From a virus: a stretch of 64,000 nt of DNA. The stretch is taken from the IMG/VR virus record IMGVR_UViG_3300047585_000208, positions 73,891 through 137,890 of that record. One strand, written 5' to 3'. A program made the position numbers and the translations under genes. The notes beneath the pieces were generated by a model, which ran no database searches, was not told the origin of the DNA, and was given only the letters and a program-made list of their open reading frames with translations. This document shows, one piece after another, positions 15,544 through 63,505 of the stretch (position 1 is its first letter; each line of letters begins with the position of its first letter).

Positions 15544-15617
15544 GTAATGCATTACTCAATTTCTCGTCAGAGAATCATCTGACGCTTATCTAAATTTCAT
15601 CCAGTAAGGAGTCTGCT

Positions 15618-19615: not shown

Positions 19616-19667
19616 TGCATTACTCAAACCCTTGGTAGAGGGTTTTTATCTACCAGAAGGGGCGGCT

Positions 19668-19868: not shown

Positions 19869-19972
19869 TGACACACGATGGCTTCACAACTGGACAAGCG
19901 TCAAAGTATATCAAAAGGCACCCTAAGACCTTGCAGACGCTTGATCGTGCCGGCAGATTGCCGGCCAAGTGA
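19868..19972 (+). pseudogene. Truncated IS607 TnpA (N-terminal HTH only)
   Basis: MTHDGFTTGQASKYIKRHPKTLQTLDRAGRLPAK* matches the IS607 resolvase N-terminal HTH pattern; no catalytic domain follows. Confidence 0.6.
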
Positions 19973-20091
19973 GCTTCGACTTGCTTGATCTTGAACAGCA
20001 ACGAAAATGTTTTCATTACACGAAGCTTCAACCGTTATGGGCGGCTGATAATCATCGCAAGGGAAAACGCGCTCAAAGAAGTATTAAAGAC

Positions 20092-21252
20092 GTGAACCTG
20101 ACACACAAGATATCCCTGGACGCCACGTTCAAGCAACGGCATTATTTTGCCCGCGCTGCTGGTACGTCCAGGTTTGTTTACAACCACGCTTTAGCCGAAT
20201 GGAATCGTCAATACTCGGCCGGAGGCAGGCCAACTGCTAACGCCTTGAAGCTGCAATTCAATGCGACGTACAAGGAACTATGGCCCTGGATTGAGGATGT
20301 TCACCGCGATTGCCATTCCCAACCTTTTGCAGATCTTGGCAAAGCGTTCGGCAATTTTTTCAAGGGCCTGGCCAAACGGCCAGTGTTCAAGAAACGCGGT
20401 AAAAGCAGGGCGTCATTTTACGTCGCCAATGACAAGTTTAGCGTGCGTGGCAACACGGTGAGGTTGCCAGTGATCGGCAAAGTGAAGATGCGAGAAGCGT
20501 TGCGGTTCACCGGCAAGATCAATTCGGCCCGCGTGGTTGAAGAGTGCGGCCAGTGGTTCATTTGTATTTCTGTGGACGTTGGTGAGTTCAGTAAGCCACG
20601 CACTGGAGACAGCGTTGTGGGCGTGGACGTTGGCGTTAAAGTGTTGGCCACGCTCGACACGGGCGAACAGATTGAGAATCCCCGTCCGCTCAAGAAGGCT
20701 CAGAAAAGATTACGCCGAGCAAACCGAAAGCTTGCCCGTCGCGTGAAGGGGTCGGCCAACAGGAATAAACAGCGGCAGGTTGTGGCCCGCATCCACCGCC
20801 GCATTCGTAATATCCGTCACGATGTTCTGCACAAATTCACGTCGCGGCTGGCCAAAAACCACGGCACAGTCGTGATCGAAGACCTCAACGTCAAAGGAAT
20901 GGTGAAAAACCATTGTTTGGCGCAAGCGATCAGCGATGCTGGGTTTGGCATGTTCCGTCAATTTCTCGGCTACAAGGTCGTGATACACGGAACGCGGATT
21001 GTCGTGGCGGATAGGTTTTATCCCAGTTCGAAGATGTGTTCGCGCTGCGGAAGAGTCAAGTCTGAGCTTTCACTCAGCGAGCGAGTGTTCATTTGCGAAT
21101 GCGGTAACGTTATTGACCGCGACTGGAACGCCGCTTTGAACCTGAAACAACTAGGGGCGGCTAGCCCCGAAGTAACGCCTGTGGAGTCGTCATGGGGCGA
21201 CAGTGAAGCAGGAACTACACCGCGAGCAGACTCACGTTTGCTCACAAGGTAG
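20092..21252 (+). CDS. tnpB: TnpB RNA-guided endonuclease
   Basis: AGTSRFVYN, RuvC-I GVDVG, RuvC-II IEDLNV, CSRCG..CECG and RuvC-III DRDWNAA; GTG 20092 is the probable start. Confidence 0.95.
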   Translation: MNLTHKISLDATFKQRHYFARAAGTSRFVYNHALAEWNRQYSAGGRPTANALKLQFNATYKELWPWIEDVHRDCHSQPFADLGKAFGNFFKGLAKRPVFKKRGKSRASFYVANDKFSVRGNTVRLPVIGKVKMREALRFTGKINSARVVEECGQWFICISVDVGEFSKPRTGDSVVGVDVGVKVLATLDTGEQIENPRPLKKAQKRLRRANRKLARRVKGSANRNKQRQVVARIHRRIRNIRHDVLHKFTSRLAKNHGTVVIEDLNVKGMVKNHCLAQAISDAGFGMFRQFLGYKVVIHGTRIVVADRFYPSSKMCSRCGRVKSELSLSERVFICECGNVIDRDWNAALNLKQLGAASPEVTPVESSWGDSEAGTTPRADSRLLTR

Positions 21253-21266
21253 AAAGCAGTTGAAAA

Positions 21267-25779: not shown

Positions 25780-25857
25780 GTAACGCATTACTCAAATTTC
25801 GGCGTAGATTATAAATCCGCCGCATACGAATCATCGATTTTCAGTTGTGATTATTAA

Positions 25858-36769: not shown

Positions 36770-36815
36770 AATGAGTTGAGTAACGCATTACTCAACTTTC
36801 TATTTGGAGCTAGTT

Positions 36816-37742
36816 ATGGCGCTTAAAGAAATTCACATTCCGCACCTTGGACACACTGTGAAGATGGGGCGTAAGCGCCCTGTCGCTAAGGGGCTTCGGC
36901 TTAAGTTTAGCCGCTATCTGAAGAATAGTTTGCCTACTCCACCGGCTTCGGTTGATTATTCTGCTAATGCATCTTCTGCGATTAGTCAGATGTATCTCAA
37001 CGACCAGCTGGGTGACTGCGTTATTGCATGTATGGGGCACACTATTGGCGTTTTGACCGGTAATGCGACCGGTTCGGCGCAAACTCTTACTCAAGCGCAA
37101 GTTCTAGCTCTTTATGAAGCTATTGGTGGTTACGTTCCTGGCGAGCCCTCTACAGACCAAGGCTGCGATGAACAGACAGCTTTGAATTATTGGATGCAAA
37201 ATGGAGCGCCAAACGGTGGAACTAAGATTCTTGGGTATTTGTCTGTTGATATTCAAAACCCGACCGAGTATCGAACCGCCCTATGGCTTTTTGAGAATTT
37301 GATTTTTGGCCTTGAATTGCCCGATGCTTGGGTTCAGAACCCAACGCCCGGGTTTGTTTGGGGGCCTGGAACGCCTGATGAAGCAAATGGACACTGTATC
37401 GGAGGAGTTGGTTATTCGTCTGCCGGTATTAAAGTCATGACGTGGGGCATGACTGGAACTATTACTGATGCAGCTATTGCTGAAGTAATGGCTCCGCAAT
37501 ATGGTGGGGAAATGTGGGTTGTGCTAGATCCTGACCAAATTGCAAAAGGTCAAGCGATTGCCCCCAACGGCATTAATTGGGATTTGTTGATTTCTGATTT
37601 CGACGCCATGGGTGGAAACGTTCCAGTTCCTGTAACGCCCCCGCCACCACCCCCGCCGCCCGTAAATCCCCCGGCACCTTCTGCGACAACCATCACATTG
37701 TCCGCCGATATGCCGGCCGGAACTTACACTGTTTCGCAATAA
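36816..37742 (+). CDS. Papain-like cysteine peptidase
   Basis: NDQLGDCV (catalytic Cys), GHCIGGVGY (His) and TWG; Pro-rich tail. Confidence 0.75.
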   Translation: MALKEIHIPHLGHTVKMGRKRPVAKGLRLKFSRYLKNSLPTPPASVDYSANASSAISQMYLNDQLGDCVIACMGHTIGVLTGNATGSAQTLTQAQVLALYEAIGGYVPGEPSTDQGCDEQTALNYWMQNGAPNGGTKILGYLSVDIQNPTEYRTALWLFENLIFGLELPDAWVQNPTPGFVWGPGTPDEANGHCIGGVGYSSAGIKVMTWGMTGTITDAAIAEVMAPQYGGEMWVVLDPDQIAKGQAIAPNGINWDLLISDFDAMGGNVPVPVTPPPPPPPPVNPPAPSATTITLSADMPAGTYTVSQ

Positions 37743-37791
37743 TGGTCTCGCCAGCTAAAGCTGGGAGCTAACATCTGCCAAAGGTGCCGCA

Positions 37792-38700
37792 ATGTTATTG
37801 GAGCCAATTCACGCTGTAACAACCAGTGACGGATACAGCGATTTCCTCAAGATAGCATTGCGGCACAACAGGCATCTAGTAGACAGCCTTGTCGTTGTAA
37901 CTTCCCCCGAAGATACAGAATCCCAACTCGTAGCAGGTCAGTTTGACTGCCGCCTAGTCATTACGCGAGAAGCTCGTGAAAATGGCCGGCTTCAAAAAGG
38001 TCGCATGGTTGAGCGCGGACTTCAGCAGCTCCCAGGCGACGGCTGGCGACTTCACTTCGACGCTGATGTAATAATGCCAGCAAGCCTCCGAACATCACTT
38101 CAGCGCGGCCTATACGACAAAGAAGCTATCTACGGCTGCGATCGCTTCAATATCGAGGGCTGGGAAGCTTATCAGAAGTTACTCACTACCGATTGGCCTT
38201 ACACAGGTTGGAGGTATCATCACTTCCTTGCTATGACGCCCACTGGTGCGCCTATTGGCTCTCGTTTGGTTCATAGTGACCAAGGTTTCTGCCCAATTGG
38301 CTTTTGGCAGTGTTGGCACTCTTCAGTTGAGATGAGTGGTATTTATCGTACTCGCCCATACCCCGTTGGCTCACGAACCGCTGCTCATGATGATGTTCAA
38401 TTTTCTCTTTTGTGGGATCGGTGTAAGAGGATTTTGATTCCAGAGTTGATTGTGGGTCATCTTATTTCGCCCGGTGCTCAATACGGAGAGAACTGGAATG
38501 GACGAGTTACAGCTCCTTTCGGACCAGATTCAAAGGTTAGACCAGCTTCGCGACGAGGATCAGGCGGCATGTTTGGCGCTAAAGCTGCCGAACCTGCCCA
38601 AGGAAATACTCAAGCCTCTTCTGCGTTATCGAAAAAGCCTGCAAAAGGAGTGCCAACAGCTCCAGGCTCGTCTTCCGGAATGGTATCGCCGCCTTGTTAG
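37792..38700 (+). CDS. GT-A fold glycosyltransferase
   Basis: VVVTSPED, KG......L, DxD motif HFDADV, IGFWQ.W and D..F...W. Confidence 0.75.
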   Translation: MLLEPIHAVTTSDGYSDFLKIALRHNRHLVDSLVVVTSPEDTESQLVAGQFDCRLVITREARENGRLQKGRMVERGLQQLPGDGWRLHFDADVIMPASLRTSLQRGLYDKEAIYGCDRFNIEGWEAYQKLLTTDWPYTGWRYHHFLAMTPTGAPIGSRLVHSDQGFCPIGFWQCWHSSVEMSGIYRTRPYPVGSRTAAHDDVQFSLLWDRCKRILIPELIVGHLISPGAQYGENWNGRVTAPFGPDSKVRPASRRGSGGMFGAKAAEPAQGNTQASSALSKKPAKGVPTAPGSSSGMVSPPC

Positions 38701-38726
38701 CGGTTGATTTAAGTTTCGTTTTTCTT

Positions 38727-38754
38727 AAGCCACCCAACTGTTGGGTGGTTTTTT
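38727..38754 (+). terminator. Intrinsic terminator
   Basis: CCACCCAA-CTG-TTGGGTGG followed by a T run. Confidence 0.75.
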
Positions 38755-38788
38755 GTTGAGTAACGCATTACTCAGGAGGGGAATTTTA

Positions 38789-39496
38789 ATGTTGATGCAA
38801 GAGCTGCTCGACATTGCGAAAGAAGAATCTCCGGAGCTTAGTGAGAAATCAGTTCGTCATACGTTGGTTACGCGGTTTGGTGGCGTGGTAAAAGCAGGCT
38901 GCCATAGCGTTAAGGAAAAATGCGGCTGTATACGCGAGCTTCGTTCAGCAGAAATTCCAGCTTCTCGTTGGACTGACTGTCCAGATCATCAATCTGACAC
39001 TCGCGGAGGTAGTCCTACTGATCGCGTGTGTCAGTTGCTCAACGATCTTAATTGGACGAGTGATGAGCTTCGGACAGAAAGATGCTTTCCACTTGTGTTT
39101 CTGACTGAAAAACGTGCGGTCGTCGGTTGGCGTAAGAAGTTGCGTAAGGTGCTGTATGCGGAGTTTGGTGACGTCTTAGTTCACGAGTTTGGGCTCTTGG
39201 TTCCAACAATCAAGGTCGAGACGCTTGTGGAGTTGACCAAGGAGTGTTTGAGATCTCCTGACTGGGCTTTAACGACTATCCAGTCTGCAATTCATGCTAC
39301 GTATCCTGGTATACGCCCTCCTTTGGCTTTATTGACGTTTGTCAAGTCCGCTGAGAAGAACGATGTTTACAAGGCAGTCAAAGCTTTCACATCCGACGCT
39401 TCCGGTCAAATCTTAATTGGTTCAACCGAAAACGATATCCGCTTTACGAGGATTTTGGAATTATTCATCAAGTGTCATGCAGGGAAAATCGCCTAA
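38789..39496 (+). CDS. Hypothetical protein
   Basis: Palindrome plus AGGAGG, ATG 38789; immediately upstream of the Cas12m-like gene. Confidence 0.65.
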   Translation: MLMQELLDIAKEESPELSEKSVRHTLVTRFGGVVKAGCHSVKEKCGCIRELRSAEIPASRWTDCPDHQSDTRGGSPTDRVCQLLNDLNWTSDELRTERCFPLVFLTEKRAVVGWRKKLRKVLYAEFGDVLVHEFGLLVPTIKVETLVELTKECLRSPDWALTTIQSAIHATYPGIRPPLALLTFVKSAEKNDVYKAVKAFTSDASGQILIGSTENDIRFTRILELFIKCHAGKIA

Positions 39497-39541
39497 CTGT
39501 TCTTGCCTCGGCAGAGGCCTTCCGCCGTAAAAGGAGTCATC

Positions 39542-41263
39542 GTGACTACAGCGTGTATCGCGCCGTCTACTGCAGCTTTCAAAAAGCCTCGCAGTAATCG
39601 CCAGTCGAACTCATCAGTCATCTGGTCATATTCTGCGAGTAAGCCTCTTACGAATTTGGACGTTATCGAGGATCAGTTCCATCGTGGGTATCAGCTTCGG
39701 CGTAATCTTGTCAGGCTTGAAAATGACCGCAGGAAAAAGCAGCAAGAACTCAGGCAGAAGACTTATCCAAGGCTCATTGAGCTTGAAGAAGCTTTGATCC
39801 CGATTGAGAAAGAAATTCTCGCGATTGAAGGCGGCATTAAGGTTGCACAGAACTCTGAAACGCTTATTAAGTTGAAGGCCGCGCGAAAGCCGTTTCTGGA
39901 TGAGAAGAGTAAGCTTGAGGTTGACCTTAGCCTTAATCTGGTATTTCAAGGGGCAGCCGGGATTATCGACAATGCATCAGACGTTTTGAAGAATAACGCT
40001 TGTTCTGAAAGCGGGCTCTACCCAGCAAACATTCAGCAAGTTATCCAGACGGTTAAAAGGACAGGGCTAGCTCCGATCATTGAGCCCGAGTACACCGGTG
40101 AAGGAAAAATTGCAGTTTATCTACCAGAGGGGCTGTCTCCGGCAGCTTTGTTTGCCGGGCAAAATCGGCTTATCCGGGTAGACCCTGTACCAGCTACCGC
40201 CTATGGGCCAAGACAACCCCACGAGATTGTTGGGCCGACTATTCCGAATCCACGCCGAACGAAAGCTTTCCTGCGAGTCGGGAGAACTGACGCGGAGGCT
40301 GTTTGGGCTGAAATTCCAGTTTTGCTGCATAGACCGTTCCCAGAGGATTGTGCTATTCGGCAGGTTTGGCTGAGTCGGAAAAAGAGCGGGTATAAGTCTG
40401 AGTGGAAATTGCAGTTCACTTGTTGGCACAATCTTACCCGGAAGCGGGCAGATAAAGGTGTTGTTGGGATTGATTTAGGGTGGCGTAAACTCCCGACTGG
40501 GCTTCGAGTTGCTTATTGGGCTGGAGACGACGGTCAGGCTGGCGAGATTGTTATTCCGAATGCACGAATTCATCAGCTTGATCTTGCAGACAACATCGAT
40601 AGCGAGCGGATTGAGATTTGCGCTGAAGAGACTTTGAATCTCAAAAACTGGATTAGCAACCATGCCGTTCCTAATTGGTTGACTGTAGATAGTGTTCCTG
40701 AGACGCTCAAAGGGCTTTTTGATATGGTGTCTGCTTGGATGAGTAATCGATTTGCAGGTGACGAAGCAATTTTCGATCAGCTTATGGCTTGGCGTAAGGA
40801 AGAGATGAAACTCGCTAATTGGGCAGCTAATCAAAGGAAGAACTTCCAAAATTGGCGCAAGCAGTTTTTCCTGGATCACGTTAGCGATTCAAGAGCGGTT
40901 GGTGCCTTTGCAAAGCTTGCGCAGCGATACCGAACTGCGGTTGTTGAAGATAATCGGCATACACCCCCAAGGCTGAAGGTTCAAGATCGGGGCTTCTCAG
41001 AGAAAGAGCGTGTACAATATCGAAATATTGCTGGTGTGGGGTTGTTTAGCGATATTCTTCGGGACCGCTTGATTGTTAAAGCTGTCCAGGTTCAAAATGC
41101 TGCGGTTATGTGCCATGAGTGCCACCGCATCTGCAAGTGGGAGCAGGTTGAGCTGAAGCATAAGTGTGAGCATCCGGGCTGTCGGGCTGAGTGGGATCAA
41201 GATTACAACACGAGTAGGAATTTGCTTGCAATCGGTCTTGAAGAGGAAGATAGGGCTGAGTAA
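39542..41263 (+). CDS. cas12m: Cas12m-like (type V-U1 / TnpB-derived) RNA-guided effector
   Basis: Q......LR..LV.LE N-terminus with coiled coil, GLY, G.G.IAV.L, W.EIPV.LHRP.P.D..I, GIDLGWR....G.RVA.W, VVED, CHEC...C..C..WDQD.N..RNLL. Motif order matches Cas12m as I recall it; AAGGAG then GTG. Confidence 0.75.
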   Translation: MTTACIAPSTAAFKKPRSNRQSNSSVIWSYSASKPLTNLDVIEDQFHRGYQLRRNLVRLENDRRKKQQELRQKTYPRLIELEEALIPIEKEILAIEGGIKVAQNSETLIKLKAARKPFLDEKSKLEVDLSLNLVFQGAAGIIDNASDVLKNNACSESGLYPANIQQVIQTVKRTGLAPIIEPEYTGEGKIAVYLPEGLSPAALFAGQNRLIRVDPVPATAYGPRQPHEIVGPTIPNPRRTKAFLRVGRTDAEAVWAEIPVLLHRPFPEDCAIRQVWLSRKKSGYKSEWKLQFTCWHNLTRKRADKGVVGIDLGWRKLPTGLRVAYWAGDDGQAGEIVIPNARIHQLDLADNIDSERIEICAEETLNLKNWISNHAVPNWLTVDSVPETLKGLFDMVSAWMSNRFAGDEAIFDQLMAWRKEEMKLANWAANQRKNFQNWRKQFFLDHVSDSRAVGAFAKLAQRYRTAVVEDNRHTPPRLKVQDRGFSEKERVQYRNIAGVGLFSDILRDRLIVKAVQVQNAAVMCHECHRICKWEQVELKHKCEHPGCRAEWDQDYNTSRNLLAIGLEEEDRAE

Positions 41264-41339
41264 TGCATTACTCAAATGCCACAGCAGAGGCTAAAGTATC
41301 TGCTGGACTTTCAACTCCTTCTAATTGCATGAGCTGATT

Positions 41340-43280
41340 ATGAGCCAGGGTTCTTTCGGTGGAATTTCGTCGTACTCCGGTCTTAACTCTGGGCAATTTC
41401 CATCTCCGTGGTGGGACTATGCTTCGACTGAATTCCCCGAAACGATGCAGTTGGCTCTAAGGTATTGTGAATACATTTTTATAAAGAACGGGATTTACCG
41501 GTCAGCCGTTGATAGACTTCTCTCTTATTTCATTACAGACCTCGACATTTCCGGACCAAAGCTTGGGGAAGACGAGGAAGAGCAGTGGAAGGCCTTTTTC
41601 TATAACGATCTTAGTTACCAGAGCGTTTTACACACAGCTGGCCTAGACGGAGAATGCTACGGCAATTACTTCTGCTCAGTCCTTCCGACTTTTAAGCGTT
41701 TCCTTTCTTGTCCGAAGTGTTTTTACGAAGCGCCACTTCGACGAATCTACAACGACCCGACATTCGCTTTTAAGTGGTCTGACTTTACCCCAAATGCTTT
41801 TTGCCCTCGATGCAAGACGACGGGCAAATGGAGTATGATTGATCGCCGTACTAGCGAGAATGGCGGGTTTTACATTAAGCGATGGAATCCGCATGAGATG
41901 GAGCTTCTTTGGGACCCGCTCACGGATCAGTGTTCGTACATCTGGAAAGTTCCAGAAGATTACCGCAGAATGATCCGTGAAGGCCACCTCTACCACCTTG
42001 AGCGGGCAACCAAAGAAGTTATTCAAGCAGTAAAGCACAACAACTATATCCTTTTCGATAAAGATATGGTTTATCACATGCGGGTAGACGCTCTGGCTGG
42101 AGTTCGAAACAGAGGTTGGGGAATTTCAAAGGTATTGTCGAACTTCAGTCAGGCGTTTTATGTTCAGGTACTCCACCGCTACAATGAGGCTATTGCGCTT
42201 GACTATGTGATCCCGTTTAGGGTCATTACGCCGGCTCCAGGTGACAAAGGAAGCGGCATTGACCCAATTCTTAGCCAAAACCTTGGCAGTATGGGTGCAC
42301 AAGTTAACGCAATGCTTCGTCGTAGACGGCGCGACCCTGCGAGCTGGCATTTCCTTCCTTTTCCGGTTAATTACACAGCGCTTGGCGGCGACGCTAATAA
42401 GCTTGCGCCGTCAGATCTCCTTAAGCTCGGTCGTGAGGATCTTCTCGACAACATCGGTGTTCCGGTTGAACTCTTTAAGGGAACAATGCAGCTACAAGCT
42501 GCTCCAGTTGCTTTGCGGCTTATGGAAGCTGTTCATGCTTCTATTCCGAGGAACCTTAACGGGCTACTTAAGTTCATTACCAAGAAGGTCAGCGCTATCA
42601 AGGGCTGGGTTAAAGCAGACGTTAGGCTAGCTCGTGTTACTCACGCAGACGATCTTAATAGGCAGCAAGCTAAGCTGCAGCTAATGATGGGTGGCCAGAT
42701 TAGTGCCACTACCGGTCTCAAGAGTATTGGCCTAGAGTACCGTGATGAAGTTAAGCGCCAGATGGACGATCAGCACTTTCAAGCTGAAGAGCAAAGCAAG
42801 CTTAAAGAAGAGATGGGGCAAGCTGCAACAATGGAGCAGCTTATCCAATCTCCTCCAGGTGGTGGTGCTCCTGGACAACCTGGTCAGCCTGGACAACAGC
42901 AAGGAGGTGCTCCACAGCAAGGTGGGCAAGGTCAGCCGCAAGGTCAAGGTGGCCCAGCTGCTGGGGCTTATCAATCTGTAACAGCTAATCTTCCGACTGG
43001 TCCTAATGAAAAGGTTAGTCCGGAAGAAATGCAAGAAAAGGCGCAGTATATTTCACAGCAGCTTATGGGCATGGACGCTGGCCAGCGCCAAAGTGAGCTC
43101 AGGAAGCTCAAGCAGGTTGACCCGACTATGCATTCGATTGTTACAGCGTTTATGCGAGATTTGCGGCAGCAAGCTCAGCGGCAAGGCGGAGCTCAGGTAT
43201 TGGCGCAGCAATTTGGAAAATCTGGTGTATGGAAAAATGGATTACTTGGGGTGCCTCACCCAGTTAAGCCTGAAGTTTGA
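41340..43280 (+). CDS. Probable phage portal protein with zinc-ribbon insertion
   Basis: YRSAVDRLLSYF, YGNYF, CPKC/CPRC insert, IKRWNP, VYH.R, GWGIS, IGVP.E and Q/G-rich tail, typical of large-phage portals. Confidence 0.65.
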   Translation: MSQGSFGGISSYSGLNSGQFPSPWWDYASTEFPETMQLALRYCEYIFIKNGIYRSAVDRLLSYFITDLDISGPKLGEDEEEQWKAFFYNDLSYQSVLHTAGLDGECYGNYFCSVLPTFKRFLSCPKCFYEAPLRRIYNDPTFAFKWSDFTPNAFCPRCKTTGKWSMIDRRTSENGGFYIKRWNPHEMELLWDPLTDQCSYIWKVPEDYRRMIREGHLYHLERATKEVIQAVKHNNYILFDKDMVYHMRVDALAGVRNRGWGISKVLSNFSQAFYVQVLHRYNEAIALDYVIPFRVITPAPGDKGSGIDPILSQNLGSMGAQVNAMLRRRRRDPASWHFLPFPVNYTALGGDANKLAPSDLLKLGREDLLDNIGVPVELFKGTMQLQAAPVALRLMEAVHASIPRNLNGLLKFITKKVSAIKGWVKADVRLARVTHADDLNRQQAKLQLMMGGQISATTGLKSIGLEYRDEVKRQMDDQHFQAEEQSKLKEEMGQAATMEQLIQSPPGGGAPGQPGQPGQQQGGAPQQGGQGQPQGQGGPAAGAYQSVTANLPTGPNEKVSPEEMQEKAQYISQQLMGMDAGQRQSELRKLKQVDPTMHSIVTAFMRDLRQQAQRQGGAQVLAQQFGKSGVWKNGLLGVPHPVKPEV

Positions 43281-43325: not shown

Positions 43326-44309
43326 ATGAAGCGTGTTCTGGTTTGCATCGGCCTTGTTTTGTTTTGTGTCGCCTCTACTGGTTTGGCCGCTCAGCAGCCG
43401 ACCACGAAAGTCCCGGATTTGGCTTTTGATAAACTTGTCCAAAGCCTGATTGGGGTGTCTGTTACTGTCGTTACTCCTCGTGGTGAGGGTAGCGGCGTTG
43501 TTAAGACTCGTAAGGTTGACGGAGTTTCGACGAATTTCATTTGGACCGCCGCTCACGTTGTGGCGGGGCTCAGGCACGAACGTTCTATTGTTGACGGCAA
43601 GAGCGGTTCGTCTAAGACGGTCGTAGAGTTCGACGACGCCAAGATCGTCAAAGAGCTCGTTAAAGCCGGTCGAATTACCGGCGAGTCAGCGATGTTTGCT
43701 GAAGTTATCCGCTATAGCGCAGACGAAGATCTCGCGCTTTTGCGTTTGCGTGAAGATGACTTCTTCAAAACTGACGCTGAATTTTATTTGGAAGAGAAAA
43801 ATGGTAAGCCTGTTCTGCCATCGATCGGAACTAGGCTTATCCACATCGGGTCGCTGCTCGGGCAATTTGGCTCAAATAGCTACACCTCCGGCGATCTGTC
43901 GTACCAAGGCCGGCTGTTGAATAAGGTCGTGTTTGATCAAACGACTGTTCCAGCTTATCCAGGTAGTTCTGGTGGTGGCGTATATACAGCTTCGGATGGT
44001 CGCTGTATTGGCTTGATCTTGCGAGGTGCTGGTGAAACCTTCAACCTGATTGCGCCGACTCGCAGGATTCACGACTGGGCTAAGAAAGCTGGTGTTGAGT
44101 GGGCTATGACCGCTAAAGCAGCTATGCCGACAGCGGCTGATCTTGCTCGTATGCCCATTGAGGACAACGGAATTAGCTTTGTCTATTCCGTTCAGCCCGG
44201 TAAGGCTGATAAAGAAAGCTTCATCGGCGAAGGTCAGCAGTACTATCTCGGTAATCGCGCGGCTGAATTGGCTCTGCCTACTTACTTTAATCTGTCACCC
44301 AAGAACTAA
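43326..44309 (+). CDS. Secreted trypsin-like serine protease
   Basis: Signal peptide; GSG, TAAHVV, DLALL and PGSSGGG. Confidence 0.9.
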   Translation: MKRVLVCIGLVLFCVASTGLAAQQPTTKVPDLAFDKLVQSLIGVSVTVVTPRGEGSGVVKTRKVDGVSTNFIWTAAHVVAGLRHERSIVDGKSGSSKTVVEFDDAKIVKELVKAGRITGESAMFAEVIRYSADEDLALLRLREDDFFKTDAEFYLEEKNGKPVLPSIGTRLIHIGSLLGQFGSNSYTSGDLSYQGRLLNKVVFDQTTVPAYPGSSGGGVYTASDGRCIGLILRGAGETFNLIAPTRRIHDWAKKAGVEWAMTAKAAMPTAADLARMPIEDNGISFVYSVQPGKADKESFIGEGQQYYLGNRAAELALPTYFNLSPKN

Positions 44310-45377
44310 ATGCGGGTTGGCTTTTATTCTTACTGGGGTCTAGGGGATTCATCCGATTTGGCGATCCGCCTTGCAGAGCGTCTCTTAGACCTCGGGATTG
44401 ATATATCGATTTTTCCAACGAATCGACGCCCTAAGCCGCTTCATTTTGCTCTGGACAAGTTTGTAGTTAGAAACAGCGAATCGTTCTCTAGTTGGGCCAG
44501 GACTGGGCAGTTTAGCCATCTTATCTTTGGCGATATGCCCAGTCCTGAGATTTTAAAGTCAATTTCTCAGCCGCAAGACAAGTTCTCTTCAGCGCCCGCC
44601 GAAACATACCTGCTCTGCAATTGGTCTGATTTAAACGAAACAGACGTTCGGCATCTCCATAAGTTGACCGGGGTTATAGCCCCAGCTAAAGCTGTGGCAG
44701 CGCTCTTGTCTAAAAGGGTTAAGCTTCAAAACATCCGGTTACTCCCTTGGGACGCTGGAGTTCCTGTTGCGAGTCGCTCTGACTCTATAAGTCCTTCTGT
44801 CATTCGGCTGTTTTGGCCAGTTACGGTTAATCAGAAGCTTTCTGCGGATAAAGATTTCACAGCGCTACTTGGGCGAGTTTTGAAGGCTCATCCAGTTGTA
44901 AAGTTGACGGTTAGCTGCTCTGGGCATGCCCCTAGTAAGCTTGCTGAAGGTTTTCAGCACTTGCATGTGGTAGCTGGCGATCGGGTTAAGCTACTTAAAG
45001 ATCTGACTTCGGAGAAAGAAGCGGTGGTTTGTGGGCAGAGCGATCTAACGCTTTGGCCGAGCCTCATTGAGAATACGGGACTTGTAGGACTGACATCATT
45101 GGCGATGGATACCCCGGTTTTGGCGTTTGCTCATCCGGTTATTGAAGAAGTGGTTAGAGATGGGCTTAATGGAAGTTTGATTCCTTGTGTACTGAATTAC
45201 AACTGGCTTGGTGTTCCTAGGGTTGAGCCAGATTGGACGGCTTTCGAGTCATGGCTTACTAGGTTAATTGCTAGGCCAGAGCTTTTAACAGCGCTTAGGC
45301 TGACTGCCCATTTAAGGATGGTTGAGCGACGGATGAAGTGGTTGGCCGGGGTGGATGAGTTATTTCTAACTGAATAA
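44310..45377 (+). CDS. GT-B fold glycosyltransferase (GT4-like)
   Basis: SDLTLWPSLIENTGLVGLTSLAMDTPVLA...EVVRDGLNGSLI. Confidence 0.8.
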   Translation: MRVGFYSYWGLGDSSDLAIRLAERLLDLGIDISIFPTNRRPKPLHFALDKFVVRNSESFSSWARTGQFSHLIFGDMPSPEILKSISQPQDKFSSAPAETYLLCNWSDLNETDVRHLHKLTGVIAPAKAVAALLSKRVKLQNIRLLPWDAGVPVASRSDSISPSVIRLFWPVTVNQKLSADKDFTALLGRVLKAHPVVKLTVSCSGHAPSKLAEGFQHLHVVAGDRVKLLKDLTSEKEAVVCGQSDLTLWPSLIENTGLVGLTSLAMDTPVLAFAHPVIEEVVRDGLNGSLIPCVLNYNWLGVPRVEPDWTAFESWLTRLIARPELLTALRLTAHLRMVERRMKWLAGVDELFLTE

Positions 45378-57456: not shown

Positions 57457-57521
57457 TTTGAGTAACGCATTACTCAACTGCTTCGGCGGAAGCTGCTTAT
57501 CCGCCGTAATGGAAATTTCCT

Positions 57522-59138
57522 ATGCTTATTGCTGAACTTGAAAAGAAAGCGTCATCCAGCGAACTCGTTAGCGCCTTTTTAGCGAGTTGCCGTAAGTCTA
57601 GGCTTTCTGATAAAAACATTACGGATTTGATTAAAACAGCTGTTTTGATTGCCCCGGAGATTGCTGAAGAGTTTGCGAGCCTTGGGTGGAAGAAAGAAGC
57701 TGTTGGCCCGACCACGCCGCTGCCACCACCTGTTCAGCCCCAAATGGCTCCTCCGGCAATGCCCCAGCAGCCAGCTCCGAGTCAGGCAGCTCCTCAAACA
57801 CCTATGCCTGGAAGTACTCAGCCGTCGTCTAATCAGCTAGGCCATCCAGAACAGCCTCATCAAGTTAAAAGTACTTCTGGAATGCCGACTGGTTTGACTA
57901 CAGCAGGTTTCGGGCAAGCGCTTCAGCCGCCCGGACAGCCAATGCAGCCACCCTTGCCGCCGCCTGGTATGCAGAGAATGGCGGCTTATAAACCTCATGA
58001 GGACGTTTATATTACAGCGATTAGGAAAGAAGCACATCCTTTGTTGATGGGGCTCGCTACTGGTGCTCGTATTGCTGCTCCAGTTGCCGCAGCAGGAGTA
58101 AGAAGTCTATTGCCAAGAGTTGGAGGTTGGTTAGGTAGCGCGGCAAGTCGGTTCGGGGCTTCTTGGTTTGGTCAGCACGTTATGCCGCACGTTGCCGTGA
58201 TGGGGGCATTTGAAGCAATACCAGCTATTCGTAACACAATCGCCGGACCAGACCCTAAACAGCAAGCAATAAGCGCAGCTCAAGGATCTGGAATGCAGCT
58301 AGCTCAGGCCGCTTCTCTCAACAATCAAGAAGCTTTTAATAAAGTCGTTGGTTCAGCTGGCCAATATCCTGCTGTAGCAGGGGCTTTGCAGCAGCTTTGG
58401 AATAACCCAGCTACTCGTCAACATCTCGCAAACCAAGATACCGCTTCTAATGCCGTTTATCAGATGCATCAGCATCTTAAGACAAACCCGAACCTTACCG
58501 GTGAGCAGCTTGGGCAGGTAATGCTTAATCAGCTCCCAAAAACAGCTGCTAGCAAGAAAGCTTTCACTCTTCAAGACATAGCGAGCAATCTTGGCGAAGT
58601 TCCTGGGCGTTTAGCTGAAACTTGGAATGGTCTTGACCCAACGAATAAAGCCGTTACTGGGGTTAGTGGTGGATTACTGGCTGCTGGGCTGCTTCAGACG
58701 CTCAGAGATCGTGAAAGTAACACTGGCCCACTTATGGCCCTTGCTGGTGCTGGGGGCGGCTTATATGGGCTTTCGAACGGTCATCCTAGCAACATGCTCC
58801 AAACAGCTAAAAATATTGCTGTGGGGCAGCCTAGGGCTGCTACTGGGCAACCTACTACAAGCGGCGGGTTATCGCTGGAGCAGGCTGCTGGGCATCCTCA
58901 ACTGTCTAAGTTTTTTGGAGCTGGCGGTTCGCCGAGGTTTAGTGACATAGTTAAAGCTCCGGATGCGGAGCTTCAAGCCGGAATTAAGCTACTTGCACCA
59001 GAGGCTCGAATGAAGCTTCATCAACAAGTTGGTAGTTTTCAGCCAGGAATGGCTCAAAGCATGGGTGCTAAAATGCTTGGGATTGATGTCGAAGGACAGC
59101 GAAAAAGGCTGCTTGGGCTCCTAGGGGGCGCAGCTTAA
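57522..59138 (+). CDS. P/Q/G/A-rich probable virion internal protein
   Basis: Repeated KxA motifs (KKA, KTA, KEA) delimiting low-complexity and GxxxG-rich segments. Confidence 0.6.
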   Translation: MLIAELEKKASSSELVSAFLASCRKSRLSDKNITDLIKTAVLIAPEIAEEFASLGWKKEAVGPTTPLPPPVQPQMAPPAMPQQPAPSQAAPQTPMPGSTQPSSNQLGHPEQPHQVKSTSGMPTGLTTAGFGQALQPPGQPMQPPLPPPGMQRMAAYKPHEDVYITAIRKEAHPLLMGLATGARIAAPVAAAGVRSLLPRVGGWLGSAASRFGASWFGQHVMPHVAVMGAFEAIPAIRNTIAGPDPKQQAISAAQGSGMQLAQAASLNNQEAFNKVVGSAGQYPAVAGALQQLWNNPATRQHLANQDTASNAVYQMHQHLKTNPNLTGEQLGQVMLNQLPKTAASKKAFTLQDIASNLGEVPGRLAETWNGLDPTNKAVTGVSGGLLAAGLLQTLRDRESNTGPLMALAGAGGGLYGLSNGHPSNMLQTAKNIAVGQPRAATGQPTTSGGLSLEQAAGHPQLSKFFGAGGSPRFSDIVKAPDAELQAGIKLLAPEARMKLHQQVGSFQPGMAQSMGAKMLGIDVEGQRKRLLGLLGGAA

Positions 59139-59754: not shown

Positions 59755-61464
59755 ATGTCGACGAATTATGCAGAGCACTTGCGGGAAGTTCCGCAGTCTG
59801 AGGCCATTCCTGGCCAGCCAATGGTACAGAACAACGCAGGTGGCTTTGTGTTCGCGGTAACGCCGTGGACACAGCTTGACAGGTTCTTGGTACTAGGTGC
59901 TGAAGGTAATACCTATTACGCTACCGAACGTAAGATGACAATCGCCAATGCCGAGAACGTTTTGAAGTGCCTTGAACAGGACGGCAAGCGCGTTGTCGAT
60001 CGCATCGCTAAAATCAGCCAGGCCGGCCGAGCCCCGAAGAATGACCCGGCCATCTTTGCTTTGGCACTGTGCGTCGCCAAGGGTAATCCGGAAACAAAGG
60101 CAGCAGCTTGTCAGGCTCTTTCACGAGTCTGCCGAATTCCGACGCACTTATTTCAGTTCATGAAGATGTACAAAGCGCTTGGCGGCAAACGGGGTCGGCA
60201 GCTTCGCCGAACACTCTGCGAGTGGTACGGCGATTACCCGAGTGCGGATTTTCTCGGGTACCACGTAACAAAGTATCAAGAAAGGGAAGGTTGGAAGCAT
60301 CGCGATGTGCTTCGGTACGCTTACAGCGCGATGAAGGCTCGCGAAACTCCAGTAGAAGGGCTGCATCAGAGGTTCGACAACAACATCAGCGATGTGCTTT
60401 ACTGGTGTGTCAACGGCTGGTCCGATGTCGGAGAAGATCCGCATCCTCAGCAGCATCTCCTTCCGATATGGGCGTTTGAAAAAGCCAAACGCGCTAAGTC
60501 CAAGGAAGAAGTTGTTAGGTTGATCCAGAGTTACAATCTTCCTCGCGAGTGCGTTCCAACGCAGTTTCTGACCGAAGCCTCAATTTGGGAAGCCTTGCTC
60601 GAACGAATGCCGATGACGGCCATGATTCGTAGTCTTTCGACTATGACGCGAGTTGGGCTACTCGCGCCGATGTCCAATGCCGTTAAGAAAGTTCTGGACG
60701 AGCTCAGTAACTCTGAACGGCTCGCAAAATCCAGAATCCACCCAATGGCTGTTTTGACTGCTCTCAAGACCTATTCGGATGGGCGCGGTGTTCGTGGTTC
60801 TACAACTTGGACGCCAGTTCCGCAGATCGTAGATGCCTTGGACGGGGCATTTTACATGGCTTTTTCGAATGTCGAGTCAACCGGCAAACGTTGGTTACTC
60901 GCGCTCGATGTTTCCGGCAGCATGGATACCGGGGTTGTCGCAGGCTGTGCTGGGATAACCCCCAGAGTGGCCAGCGCGGCAATGTCCTTAGTCACCGCGA
61001 ATGTTGAAAGTCAGCACGCGTTTGTTGCTTTTACGTCTGGTGGTTGGACTGCCCCACGAGCTGGCCTAAGTCAGTGGGCTAGCGATGGGCTTGGCAACGC
61101 TATTACCCCGCTGTCGATTTCTCCAAGGCAGCGAGTTGACGACGTTTGCGAGCAGATTCGAGAGTTGCCAATGGGCGGTACTGACTGCGCTTTGCCGATG
61201 CTATATGCGGCCGAGCAGAAGATTCCGGTTGATTGTTTCGTTATTTACACAGATAACGAGACTTGGGCTGGTCGAGTTCATCCGACTGTGGCTTTAAGGG
61301 AGTATCGTCAGAAGCTGGGTATTCCTGCGAAGTTGATTGTGGTTGGGCTTACGTCAACCGGCTTTACGATTGCCGATCCGGCTGATGCTGGTCAGCTAGA
61401 TATGGTTGGTTTCGACGCAGCTGCTCCTGAGCTGATGTCAGATTTTGTTCGGGACGAGTTGTAG
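59755..61464 (+). CDS. rsr: Ro60/TROVE RNA-binding protein with vWA domain
   Basis: VQNNAGGFVF, RFLVLG.EG.TYY, GRAPKNDPAIFALA, KYQ.REGW.HRD, MIDAS LDVSGSM, GGTDCALPM, TDNETW and VGFD. Confidence 0.97.
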   Translation: MSTNYAEHLREVPQSEAIPGQPMVQNNAGGFVFAVTPWTQLDRFLVLGAEGNTYYATERKMTIANAENVLKCLEQDGKRVVDRIAKISQAGRAPKNDPAIFALALCVAKGNPETKAAACQALSRVCRIPTHLFQFMKMYKALGGKRGRQLRRTLCEWYGDYPSADFLGYHVTKYQEREGWKHRDVLRYAYSAMKARETPVEGLHQRFDNNISDVLYWCVNGWSDVGEDPHPQQHLLPIWAFEKAKRAKSKEEVVRLIQSYNLPRECVPTQFLTEASIWEALLERMPMTAMIRSLSTMTRVGLLAPMSNAVKKVLDELSNSERLAKSRIHPMAVLTALKTYSDGRGVRGSTTWTPVPQIVDALDGAFYMAFSNVESTGKRWLLALDVSGSMDTGVVAGCAGITPRVASAAMSLVTANVESQHAFVAFTSGGWTAPRAGLSQWASDGLGNAITPLSISPRQRVDDVCEQIRELPMGGTDCALPMLYAAEQKIPVDCFVIYTDNETWAGRVHPTVALREYRQKLGIPAKLIVVGLTSTGFTIADPADAGQLDMVGFDAAAPELMSDFVRDEL

Positions 61465-62218: not shown

Positions 62219-62294
62219 GTAAAGTACTGTCCCTCGGCAGAGGGCTTATATCCGCTGTAGGTAGTGGCTCTAGCAATAGGGGGAAAAGGATGCG

Positions 62295-63266: not shown

Positions 63267-63350
63267 GCTTAGATCGATCCCTAGTTTGGGATAATCTACT
63301 AACCAAGTCCCCTGGCGGAGGGTTATATCCGCCAGTTTTGGTTGCAAGCA

Positions 63351-63505
63351 GCCGGCAGATTGCCGGCCAAGTGAACTTCTTTGAACCTGAAACAACTAGG
63401 GGCAGTTAGCCCCGAAGTAACGCCTGTGGAGTCGTCATGGGACGACAGTGAAGCAGGAACTACACCGCGAGCAGGCTTACGTCTGCTCACAAGGTAGAAA
63501 GCAGT
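63351..63505 (+). mobile_element. Non-autonomous deletion derivative of the 19.9-21.3 kb TnpB element carrying the omega-RNA region
   Basis: 63351-63379 matches 19949-19977 and 63380-63505 matches 21135-21260. Confidence 0.88.

Follow-up and report, generated by a model that had tools for sequence, protein, structure and literature searches.

A divergent phage Cas12m and a dispersed family of hairpins resembling Cas12m repeats

We describe a large, uncultured phage that encodes a protein of 573 amino acids, which sequence profiles and a predicted fold strongly support as a true but divergent Cas12m, the type V-M effector. The available sequence holds no CRISPR array, and it carries a covarying family of handle-like hairpins that resemble the repeats of real Cas12m loci. 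This hints at a Cas12m that has come to act on messages of the phage itself, and the reading in which it binds, and perhaps trims, handle hairpins in phage mRNAs has in our judgment about an even chance of being right.

The source is an IMG/VR "linear" virus record of 137,890 bp (137.9 kb) with a CheckV completeness of 67%. Coordinates are positions of the window, meaning the whole 64,000-nt stretch that was analyzed, unless marked "record".

Results

The cas12m gene and its neighborhood

The features of the cas12m region are as follows.

38789..39496, + strand: ORFan of 235 aa, the ORF directly upstream of cas12m; no family
39531..39536, + strand: Shine-Dalgarno AAGGAG, 5 nt before GTG 39542, read from the sequence
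39542..41263, + strand: cas12m CDS, 573 aa from GTG 39542; match to solved Cas12m, RuvC D-E-D, zinc ribbon, H276/R277
41257..41274, no strand: palindrome TGAGTAATGCATTACTCA, 18 bp, containing the cas12m stop codon
41274..41308, + strand: U6 hairpin; GCC at 41278-41280, loop 41289-41298 starting with GGC, tail GAC
41309..41342, + strand: would-be guide segment of U6, covering the leader of the portal gene as far as its in-frame ATG 41340
41325/41340-43280, + strand: portal gene next to cas12m; its leader bears U6

The open frame of cas12m extends to a TTG at 39503 (39503..41263, +), corresponding to 586 aa. The GTG is the likelier start because of the Shine-Dalgarno in front of it and because alignments with relatives begin near residue 38 of the 586-aa frame. 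The upstream ORFan, for which we found no family match and no informative structural neighbor, probably shares a transcript with cas12m; a terminator-like hairpin with a T run, a palindrome (38758-38773) and a ribosome-binding site lie 5' of it. At the other end, the stop codon TAA (41261-41263) sits within the palindrome GAGTAATGCATTACTC (41258-41273) and a hairpin follows (stem 41282-41288/41299-41305), just as a preliminary description of this DNA had read it. That description had also named the next gene as a portal gene, and indeed its product aligns with the portal annotated in Salmonella phage Arash (25% identity, E 3e-48), and 14 phage loci from IMG/VR match it at 41-54% identity.

Judging from sequence comparison, the cas12m segment is an accessory insertion of about 4.7 kb between genes that are adjacent in related phages. 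In the portal-related phages (41-54% identity), the 6 kb that precede the portal gene contained no cas12m, and the loci compared showed no repeated palindrome. Contig joints skipping 36795-41256 were considered as an empty-site variant and rejected: the joint sides measure only 20-22 letters, both ends lie at palindromes, and we read them as cross-matches between palindrome copies. Contig pieces with zero differing letters cover parts of cas12m in the runs of two other studies; such short identical pieces show only that the same sequence occurs in those runs.

The protein belongs with Cas12m and not with TnpB

A single-sequence phmmer search matched the protein to PDB 23vw_A, "Cas12m", over residues 41-578 (E 6.2e-38). 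When a family profile was compared with solved chains, 23vw scored 2.4e-156, Cas12m2 (8hhl) 2e-69 and 8pm4 1.3e-64, while the best TnpB-like chain in the same search reached 7e-14. The AF2 model of the 573-aa protein (pLDDT 79) places helices at residues 52-183, and the first four Foldseek ranks are all Cas12m2 or Cas12m (E 2.5e-23 to 1e-19, TM 0.55-0.62). The predicted fold has the domain layout of Cas12m, with a WED domain, a long helical REC insertion and a RuvC domain with an inserted zinc ribbon (TNB).

Aligned with relatives, the RuvC motifs are GIDLGW (D324, in 586-aa numbering), VVED (E482) and DQD (D565, D567), and the zinc ribbon CxxC...CxxxxC corresponds to C537, C540, C555 and C560. 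H276 and R277, invariant in 11 of 11 family sequences, align to H269/R270 of Cas12m2, which make base-specific contacts to the crRNA scaffold (PMC10442227). All 16 family-invariant residues are kept, at an identity to the nearest relative of only about 30%.

The phage has an ordinary TnpB gene of its own, separate from cas12m:

19969-21252: ordinary TnpB gene of the phage

This TnpB scores 9.9e-33 with Pfam OrfB_IS605, a family that the Cas12m does not match, and the two proteins share 22% identity over 116 aa. TnpBs of the IS200/IS605 type measure about 400 aa, with OrfB_IS605 and HTH_OrfB domains and an omega RNA that overlaps the 3' end; a Pfam search of the Cas12m gave no match. The IS200/IS605 TnpB model NF038281 gives the Cas12m 11.7 bits against a cutoff of 425. 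The preliminary description had proposed a Cas12m-type ORF of 573 aa with acidic RuvC residues, and motifs, profile and fold matches all agree with it; the possibility it had left of an ordinary transposon TnpB fails, as the profile comparison sides with Cas12m. As a separate observation, the RNA machinery of this phage further includes the omega RNA of its TnpB, and Ro60.

The record lacks an array, and a hairpin occupies its usual place

A type V-M system normally has an array with repeats of about 36 nt beside its effector gene. No CRISPR array was detected in the whole 137,890-bp record by k-mer scan, nor in the window by Tandem Repeats Finder. Searching Rfam returned one tRNA and no CRISPR repeat, and two covariance models (R1 and R2) did not find a canonical Cas12m repeat (best E 0.12). 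The array absence already remarked upon in the preliminary description thus extends to the 137.9-kb record and, as this is 67% complete, to about two thirds of the genome.

In related loci, at least two repeats lie directly 3' of cas12m in 30 of 39 cases (k-mer scan and reading by eye), and in one locus (L011) a solitary repeat directly follows the gene (R2 23.5 bits). The same slot in the phage, right after the cas12m stop, is taken by U6, a pseudoknot hairpin of 35 nt, after which comes the portal gene. In the U6 stem, CAGCAGA (41282-41288) pairs with TCTGCTG (41299-41305), with an MFE of -11.8 kcal/mol (z -2.6). U6 obtains 5.9 bits with R2 (E 0.027, a partial match in a 101-nt search), and several positions conserved in the repeat consensus are changed in it.

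A covarying hairpin family on the coding strand

The handle layout consists of a 3-nt pseudoknot strand, a 2-nt linker and a stem of 6-7 bp, the first 3 nt of the loop pairing with the pseudoknot strand. Across the phage family, 99% of positions are paired, the pseudoknot is present in 100% and compensatory changes occur at 9 of 10 pairs. All eight palindrome-linked hairpins, which had been picked regardless of a pseudoknot, have one, formed by 7 different triplets. We built a covariance model, R3, from 10 phage units only; these include U6, the unit most like a repeat, whose 30.9 bits are therefore the score of a training sequence, and three units (N1-N3) from a scan that required stem and pseudoknot.

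Units within the window include the following.

15557..15587, + strand: U4, R3 26.6 bits, training sequence
19625..19658, + strand: U5, R3 32.9 bits, training sequence; best genome-wide match of R1
25792..25825, + strand: U10, R3 23.7 bits, E 0.0054, outside the training set
39501..39530, + strand: marginal handle-like unit in the cas12m leader, R3 17.7 bits, E 0.16 genome-wide, weak
57476..57509, + strand: U7, R3 34.4 bits, training sequence; 13 nt before gene 57522-59138
62227..62260, + strand: handle-like unit, R3 20.8 bits, E 0.028, outside the training set
63305..63337, + strand: N2, lacks a palindrome; lies immediately 5' of a mini element that consists of an omega RNA only

At E<0.01, R3 gave 14 matches in the phage, namely its 10 training units and 4 new ones. 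Among the matches at E<=1, 23 of 24 lie on the coding strand and 21 of 23 outside long ORFs; the omega-RNA scaffolds of the phage gave zero R3 matches. A loose pseudoknot-hairpin descriptor scan taken alone (35 on the plus strand versus 19 on the minus strand, stems >=6) was discarded as too unspecific. Stem sequences vary greatly among the units, and given this divergence it may be doubtful that a single protein binds them all.

The marginal unit in the cas12m leader has GCC/GGC pseudoknot partners, one A.C mismatch in the stem and a 5-nt loop, and its MFE fold differs; its guide position would hold the Shine-Dalgarno and start codon of cas12m. Another unit, at record 11931-11963 (L040), ends precisely where the 18-bp junction palindrome starts.

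The 16-bp core of this palindrome has 63 copies (<=3 mismatches) in the 137.9-kb record, and roughly 58-63 palindromes mark nearly every gene junction of the phage. A pyrimidine precedes and a purine follows in 41 of 41 cases; we rejected these flanks as a PAM, on which they are uninformative because the flanking bases just extend the palindrome. The palindrome was also rejected as the Cas12m handle itself: it shares just its final bases with the 5' portion of the handle, and most of the 63 copies are not accompanied by a hairpin. Dispersed palindrome-hairpin RNAs had been put forward as a guide in the preliminary description: the hairpin half of that idea gains support from the Cas12m repeat layout and the repeats found by R3 (below), and the palindrome half does not.

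The phage hairpins share the register of real Cas12m repeats

We aligned 21 Cas12m repeats, which have a 6-bp stem and a 3-bp pseudoknot, with 91.5% of cells paired and compensatory changes at 9 of 9 pairs. The pseudoknot register of the phage family is the same. It also speaks for the likeness that the genome-wide top match of R1, a model derived from CRISPR repeats, is one of the phage units (U5). Applied to 207 kb of Cas12m loci, R3 gave 47 matches at E<=10 (best 27.5 bits, E 9e-4), about 43 of which fall on CRISPR or solitary repeats of six loci (L033, L005, L025, L028, L017 and L011). In the control set, R3 matched nothing in the 11 portal loci from related phages; its sole real matches were the Cas12m repeats of locus L038.

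Solitary repeats far from the array, from 7 to about 18 of them, were also seen in 3 of 5 other Cas12m-bearing virus records. Together with the phage family, this suggests a wider phage habit. In the literature that we searched, we found no published account of scattered Cas12m repeats in phages.

Discussion

A proposed action of Cas12m on phage messages

We propose that Cas12m would recognize the handles in phage transcripts in the way it reads the scaffold of its crRNA. It may also cleave the transcript immediately 5' of each handle, like Cas12m on pre-crRNA, and after cutting would hold the ~20 nt beyond the handle, including leader, ribosome-binding site and start codon, as a "guide". In this way a group of phage genes, perhaps with cas12m among them, would be controlled post-transcriptionally or have their transcripts processed, and fixed-guide complexes would arise. 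Handle binding, cutting and any regulatory effect are what we infer here, and it is in this conditional sense that we retain the term "RNA-guided regulator" of the preliminary description.

A bolder version, which we consider improbable, would have Cas12m fully turned from immunity to phage gene expression, array-less and with a palindrome-directed roadblock in addition. Handles in at least 14 mRNA leaders (weakly, that of cas12m itself) would let it process or gate messages. The unit at record 11931-11963, with the palindrome as its "guide", would send Cas12m to the ~58-63 palindromes and might thereby set up a programmable roadblock or insulator across the genome.

Should Cas12m indeed bind the handle-bearing leaders, it would be a natural array-less CRISPR effector acting on its carrier's own transcripts, for gene control and not immunity. 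The handle family also represents a ready mutational series, with one layout, seven pseudoknot triplets and many stems, which would show the handle features a Cas12m needs and could be useful for engineering compact Cas12m tools. The system bears as well on the interconversion of array-less RNA-guided proteins (TnpB, TldR) and CRISPR effectors.

Other explanations

An ordinary V-M system is unlikely, though it deserves real weight. Its array would lie in the host or in that third of the genome which the record does not cover, and the leader hairpins would be unrelated regulatory RNAs of the phage: mRNA stabilizers, RNase sites or operators of another protein. The completeness of 67% leaves room for such an array, and the phage is already rich in RNA machinery (TnpB/omega RNA, Ro60). 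Hairpin-bearing leaders often have no strong Shine-Dalgarno while plain palindrome leaders carry AAAGGAG, a contrast that fits some translation element. Models made from CRISPR repeats also stay below significance on the phage units. The best genome-wide match of R1 is a member of the handle family, U5, with 14.5 bits and E 0.12-0.25; with R2, made from CRISPR repeats only, U6 is absent from the window matches at E<=10; and an nhmmer CRISPR-repeat profile gave U6 2.7 bits (E 23), such a sequence-only search being uninformative. As R2 misses true arrays in 3 of 10 held-out loci, its failure on the phage units is weak evidence, but still a failure. Against an ordinary system stands the slot after cas12m, which holds arrays in most related loci and a member of the handle family here. 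In addition, R3 picks up genuine Cas12m repeats and stays silent in control DNA, and the pseudoknot register is identical.

There is a slim chance that the handles are RNA anti-CRISPR decoys of the Racr kind, directed against a host V-M system, and that cas12m was captured separately. Viruses are known to carry solitary units that act as repeat mimics and block Cas proteins, including for type V-A, and such units often stand just after a promoter, as the phage handles do after the palindrome (PMC10651486). However, the published units are described as "not associated with cas genes" (PMC10651486), whereas this phage encodes a presumably matching effector and one unit abuts cas12m. The divergence of the units from each other, with compensatory changes, would not be expected of mimics of one host repeat either.

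We find it similarly hard to credit a system with fixed guides like those of TnpB/omega RNA or TldR, in which handle and flank would form hard-wired DNA-binding guides against related phages without the insertion or against a host locus. It would account for U6 directly after cas12m, as omega RNA follows tnpB, for the cas12m segment being an insertion relative to related phages, and for the single repeat of the Cas12m in locus L011. However, the record yielded no target: with the unit reading into the palindrome left out, second matches of the 18-nt would-be guides showed no excess over chance (39 off-site matches with <=4 mismatches for 20 units, versus ~32 per 21 random 18-mers). The palindrome pattern has zero exact matches in IMG/VR, so near relatives offer no co-occurrence comparison and no near relative there could be the target. 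The placement of the units in leaders on the coding strand would also go unexplained. Homing by cleavage is unlikely, since Cas12m orthologues with D-E-D, H-D-D and N-D-D bind without cutting (PMC11013384).

Finally, that cas12m is a decaying remnant which lost its array, with U6 as the last degraded repeat, would agree with the missing array and the deviations of U6 from the consensus but is very improbable, given the frame intact at 573 codons, the 16 invariant residues, the strong Shine-Dalgarno, the letter-identical contig pieces in two other studies' runs and the at least 14 structurally maintained handle copies with compensatory changes, which argue for selection.

Comparison with known systems

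The closest known systems are the type V-M effectors (MmCas12m2, GoCas12m and MsCas12m; PDB 8hhl, 8hio, 8pm4, 23vw and 23vu), which have the family, size, predicted fold and helical REC insertion in common with the phage protein. Its RuvC triad is D-E-D, as in 4 of 8 orthologues of Bigelyte et al. (PMC11013384), the His-Arg residues contacting the scaffold are kept, and the handles have the same pseudoknot-plus-stem register. Cas12m orthologues perform PAM-dependent, RNA-guided binding of dsDNA without cleavage and process their own pre-crRNA (PMC11013384, PMC10442227). Unlike them, the phage has no array beside cas12m or within 137.9 kb, and its handles occur singly, are scattered over mRNA leaders and differ strongly from one another.

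Phage Cas12m proteins without adaptation genes have been described. MvCas12m of myxophage MV-1 has an adjacent array of eight spacers (10.64898/2026.09.14.751636), and Virus Rctr197k (KX853510.1) has an annotated CRISPR of 1.5 kb adjacent to the gene, both unlike the locus presented here. The MV-1 preprint claims the first phage Cas12m (10.64898/2026.09.14.751636); this is contradicted by Rctr197k and by a 2024 review stating that V-M is "also encoded by some prophages" (PMC11656645).

Racr and viral solitary repeat units (PMC10651486) are likewise single, repeat-like viral units after a recurrent upstream motif; they closely copy a CRISPR repeat of the host. Here, in contrast, the virus encodes the presumed cognate effector, and the units are many and diversified; "Cas12m" and "V-M" have 0 occurrences in the main text of that study. 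Shmakov et al. (10.1101/2023.03.03.530964) reported crRNA-like regulatory RNAs, and standalone repeat-like units by a type V effector gene, and proposed that standalone repeats regulate or titrate the effector. Those units lie inside array-bearing CRISPR-cas loci, mostly type I and V-A, and are near-identical to the array repeat.

The phage arrangement also recalls TnpB and its omega RNA, whose scaffold begins where the gene ends and whose guide comes from the adjoining sequence, a would-be guide in the phage. In TldR repressors, as in Cas12m orthologues, the effector binds rather than cuts. The protein of this phage, however, is a Cas12m, and its handle measures 35 nt compared with at least 130 nt for an omega RNA.

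Identity of the Cas12m-like protein

The gene is a single open frame of 586 codons (window 39503-41263, + strand; ORF listing). Its start codon is likely the GTG at 39542, because AAGGAG precedes it by 5 nt and the alignment with relatives begins near residue 38 of the 586-aa frame; this start reproduces the 573-aa length of the preliminary description. Pfam gave zero matches for the protein, and NCBIfam and PHROGs gave faint TnpB/transposase matches alone, confined to the C-terminal 60 residues. A search of 5.8 billion proteins returned the window's own product and 10 relatives (340-640 aa, 24-38% identity), of which 8 carry a Cas12f1-like TNB domain. In the family alignment, the phage protein has GIDLGW (RuvC-I), VVED (RuvC-II), a CxxC...CxxxxC zinc ribbon and DQD (RuvC-III), so that the Cas12m-type motif order with GIDLG, VVED and DQD, previously read from the sequence alone, is also present in alignment with relatives. 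In two of these relatives (P0009 and P0011) the first Asp of RuvC-I, the zinc ribbon and DQD have been lost, and these two may be nuclease-dead, ribbon-less derivatives.

Searched as a single sequence against all PDB sequences, the protein matched 23vw_A ("CRISPR-associated DNA-binding protein Cas12m") with E 6.2e-38 over residues 41-578. The family profile gave E-values of 2.4e-156 for 23vw, 2e-69 for Cas12m2 (8hhl, 8hio), 1.3e-64 for 8pm4 and 5.8e-63 for UnCas12m4a, and 7e-14 for the best TnpB-like chain. The AlphaFold2 model (pLDDT 79) has a long helical REC insertion at residues 52-183, and the first four Foldseek ranks against PDB are all Cas12m2 or Cas12m complexes. H276/R277, invariant across the family, align with Cas12m2 H269/R270, which are described as making base-specific contacts to the crRNA scaffold (PMC10442227).

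The phage's own ordinary TnpB is a separate gene (19969-21252; Pfam OrfB_IS605, 9.9e-33), and the two proteins share 22% identity over 116 residues only. The homology check against Cas12m and TnpB, set beforehand with clustering among ordinary transposon TnpBs as the refuting outcome, was run and showed no such clustering. Given the profile, PDB and fold matches and the separate TnpB at 22% identity, that refutation fails. We reject an ordinary transposon TnpB, as the Cas12m matches stand far above the TnpB-like ones and a true TnpB is encoded elsewhere in the phage, and conclude that the product is a Cas12m.

[quoted passage not shown]

With Cas12m and TnpB, this phage has two RNA-guided protein families. 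The TnpB is of IS605 type, with OrfB_IS605, TNB and HTH domains in Pfam and an omega-RNA-like 3' region (21140-21260). In a gene-less mini copy at 63351-63505, about 126 nt of this region are fused to 29 nt from the beginning of tnpB, and the 3' flank is different. The window also encodes a Ro60/TROVE protein (59755-61464; Pfam vWA_Ro60 4e-60, TROVE 1e-42).

Genomic context of cas12m

The window is the final 64 kb of the 137,890-bp IMG/VR record, which is classed as linear and rated 67% complete by CheckV, and the + strand holds nearly all long ORFs. As the preliminary description had it, cas12m stands beside the portal gene, which comes directly next after it. Phages related by portal (41-54% identity) have no cas12m within 6 kb of it, and their homologue of the 35535-36608 gene sits just upstream of the portal. 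Because that homologue adjoins the portal without cas12m in these phages, about 4.7 kb (36.6-41.3 kb), cas12m included, looks like an accessory insertion.

Features next to cas12m
38758-38773: palindrome copy
38789-39496: 235-aa ORFan directly before cas12m; its own upstream region has a terminator-like hairpin, palindrome and RBS
41257-41274: palindrome copy

Family searches and structural neighbours gave no informative relatives of the ORFan. From the terminator-like hairpin, palindrome and RBS that precede it, the ORFan and cas12m probably form one transcription unit. Glycosyltransferase-like genes flank the cas12m segment and portal (37792-38700, weak GT2, region 36804-38700; 44310-45377, GT1/GT4, region 43326-45377), and a trypsin-like protease gene (43326-44309) follows the portal.

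Arrays in the phage and in relatives

No CRISPR-like array was found by k-mer scan of the whole record, TRF on the window or Rfam; the earlier claim of no array thus extends to 137,890 bp, with about a third of the genome outside the record. We compared 39 loci encoding relatives (5 viral, 2 genomes, 32 metagenomes; several are the same element resampled). The k-mer scan placed an array start 150-300 nt downstream of the gene in 27 of the 39 and an array upstream in L038. By eye, degenerate arrays lie downstream in L007, L036 and L018, a single repeat is seen at the contig end of L020 and a lone one after cas12m in L011, and no array was seen in L014, L022 and L023; the sequences of L021, L026 and L029 are too short past the gene to judge. 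The L011 repeat (4725-4761 of metagenome contig MTLD01003076.1) is canonical (23.5 bits with R2, a covariance model of CRISPR repeats) and belongs to no array; the product of a gene downstream of it, read by eye, has an apparent SLH domain.

A 2026 preprint (10.64898/2026.09.14.751636) describes a Cas12m from a myxophage, with an array beside it. In GenBank Virus Rctr197k (KX853510.1, 112351-114219), a Cas12m homologue that carries only the label "similar to transposase" stands next to an annotated CRISPR of 1.5 kb, and this phage Cas12m is older than the claim of a first phage Cas12m in that preprint.

A hairpin family with the pairing register of Cas12m repeats

Repeats from 21 arrays are 36 nt long and have in common a 6-bp stem and a 3-bp pseudoknot, in which columns 9-11 pair with the loop's first three bases; pairing holds in 91.5% of cells, with compensatory change at 9 of 9 pairs. 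The hairpin noted earlier after the cas12m stop is present as U6 (41274-41308), directly after the stop codon: AAATGCC-A-CAGCAGA-GGCTAAAGTA-TCTGCTG-GAC. It is similar to the commonest Cas12m repeat class (consensus CAATGCCTGCGCAGAGGCTTnGTATTTGCGAC), from which it differs by a shorter linker and one extra stem pair, loop base and tail base.

The 16-bp palindrome core, GAGTAAYGCRTTACTC, has 63 copies in the record (<=3 mismatches), almost always at gene junctions, and no exact match in IMG/VR. It often provides the stop codon; AAAGGAG and a start codon come immediately after most copies, and a hairpin takes their place after a subset. In 41 perfect-arm 18-bp palindromes the preceding base is always a pyrimidine and the following base always a purine, which makes the actual site 20 bp long.

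Eight hairpins were chosen on the sole ground that they follow a palindrome. In every one of them, the 3 nt lying 2 nt before the 6-bp stem complement the first 3 loop bases (6 by Watson-Crick pairs only, 2 with one G.U; 7 different triplets); by our arithmetic, chance at a fixed register is about 0.05 per unit, the register having been picked after inspection. This register (pseudoknot 3, linker 2, stem 6, loop opening with the partner) is that of Cas12m repeats. In a 10-unit alignment 99% of cells pair (pseudoknot 100%), with compensatory change at 9 of 10 pairs; three units (N1-N3) were taken from a scan with stem and pseudoknot as requirements and so pair by construction.

Elsewhere in the record, L040:3189-3222 and L040:3690-3723 are near-identical handle-like units, that is, resembling the Cas12m RNA scaffold. 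Each lies right after a stop codon, and the two have in common a downstream element (atacagtc..ggggtctttgcacccctgaaactgttttg, about 60-70 nt) that may be a larger structured RNA.

Covariance searches in both directions

R1, built from 21 repeats, gave no significant match in the phage (best E 0.25 with default filters, 0.12 with filters off); this best match is a family member, U5. With R2 (12 repeats, GCC/GGCTT class), U6 was not among the window matches at E<=10, and a 101-nt search around it returned the U6 hairpin as best match (model positions 15-33, 5.9 bits, E 0.027); nhmmer on U6 gave 2.7 bits, E 23. In calibration, held-out true repeats scored 8 to 42 bits with R2 and the arrays of 3 of 10 held-out loci were missed (L003, L019, L039), so a diverged true handle can escape CRISPR-derived models.

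R3 was built from 10 phage units only, U6 among them. In 207 kb of Cas12m loci it gave 47 matches at E<=10, about 43 of which fall by coordinates on CRISPR repeats or R1-found solitary repeats (L033, L005, L025, L028, L017, L011), full-length and on the gene's strand (best 27.5 bits, E 9e-4). Those in L033 at 4641-4865 lie just beyond the array span marked by k-mer scan, and the remaining four score <=17.7 bits. In a 139-kb control set the only matches >12 bits were two Cas12m repeats of L038, and the 11 portal loci of related phages within it gave none at E<=10.

Of the 14 units that R3 found in the phage at E<0.01, 10 belong to the training set and four are new.

New units found with R3
L042:13005-13035: handle-like unit
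L042:12195-12225: handle-like unit
window 25792-25825: handle-like unit
L040:16261-16295: handle-like unit

At E<=1 there are 24 matches, 23 of them on the + strand; 21 of 23 lie outside long + strand ORFs, and most units have a start codon about 10-40 nt downstream. The phage's TnpB omega-RNA scaffolds gave no match. We give little weight as a handle to a weak unit in the cas12m leader (17.7 bits, E 0.16), whose minimum-energy fold differs and which has AAGGAG and GTG in its guide position, just 3' of the handle.

Possible role of scattered handles

Cas12m is described as guided by a single 50-60-nt crRNA without tracrRNA, the repeat part adopting a triplex and pseudoknot fold, and orthologues as cutting pre-crRNA inside the repeat independently of RuvC (PMC11013384; PMC10442227). 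As the likeliest mechanism, at about even odds, we propose that the phage Cas12m recognises and binds handles within phage transcripts, perhaps cutting just upstream of them, and that a set of phage messages would thereby be controlled or processed. Fixed-guide complexes would be a by-product or second function; in the record, second matches to the would-be guides do not exceed chance. Beyond "handle-like", we infer the binding, cutting and regulatory steps.

A weak unit at L040:11931-11963 (record 11931-11963; 18.2 bits, E 0.13, fold z -0.7) runs right up to the start of an 18-bp palindrome. Its putative guide has 17 exact sites, 39 with <=1 mismatch and 58 with <=2. More speculatively, a crRNA-like transcript from this unit would carry the palindrome as its guide, which is the basis of a bold reading.

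Our literature search found no report of a Cas12m with scattered or array-less handles; RNA anti-CRISPR activity is described as possible for viral solitary repeat units (PMC10651486). We scanned five Cas12m-bearing virus records (G001-G005) with R1. G001 and G003 showed no repeats beyond their array, and the other three have solitary Cas12m repeats far from the array, on both strands (about 11 in G002, 18 in G004 and 7 in G005, the records of L002, L004 and L005). We therefore regard single repeats in scattered positions as a trait that recurs among Cas12m viruses. Compared with these three, our phage shows no array in its record, and its copies keep the structure despite their divergence.
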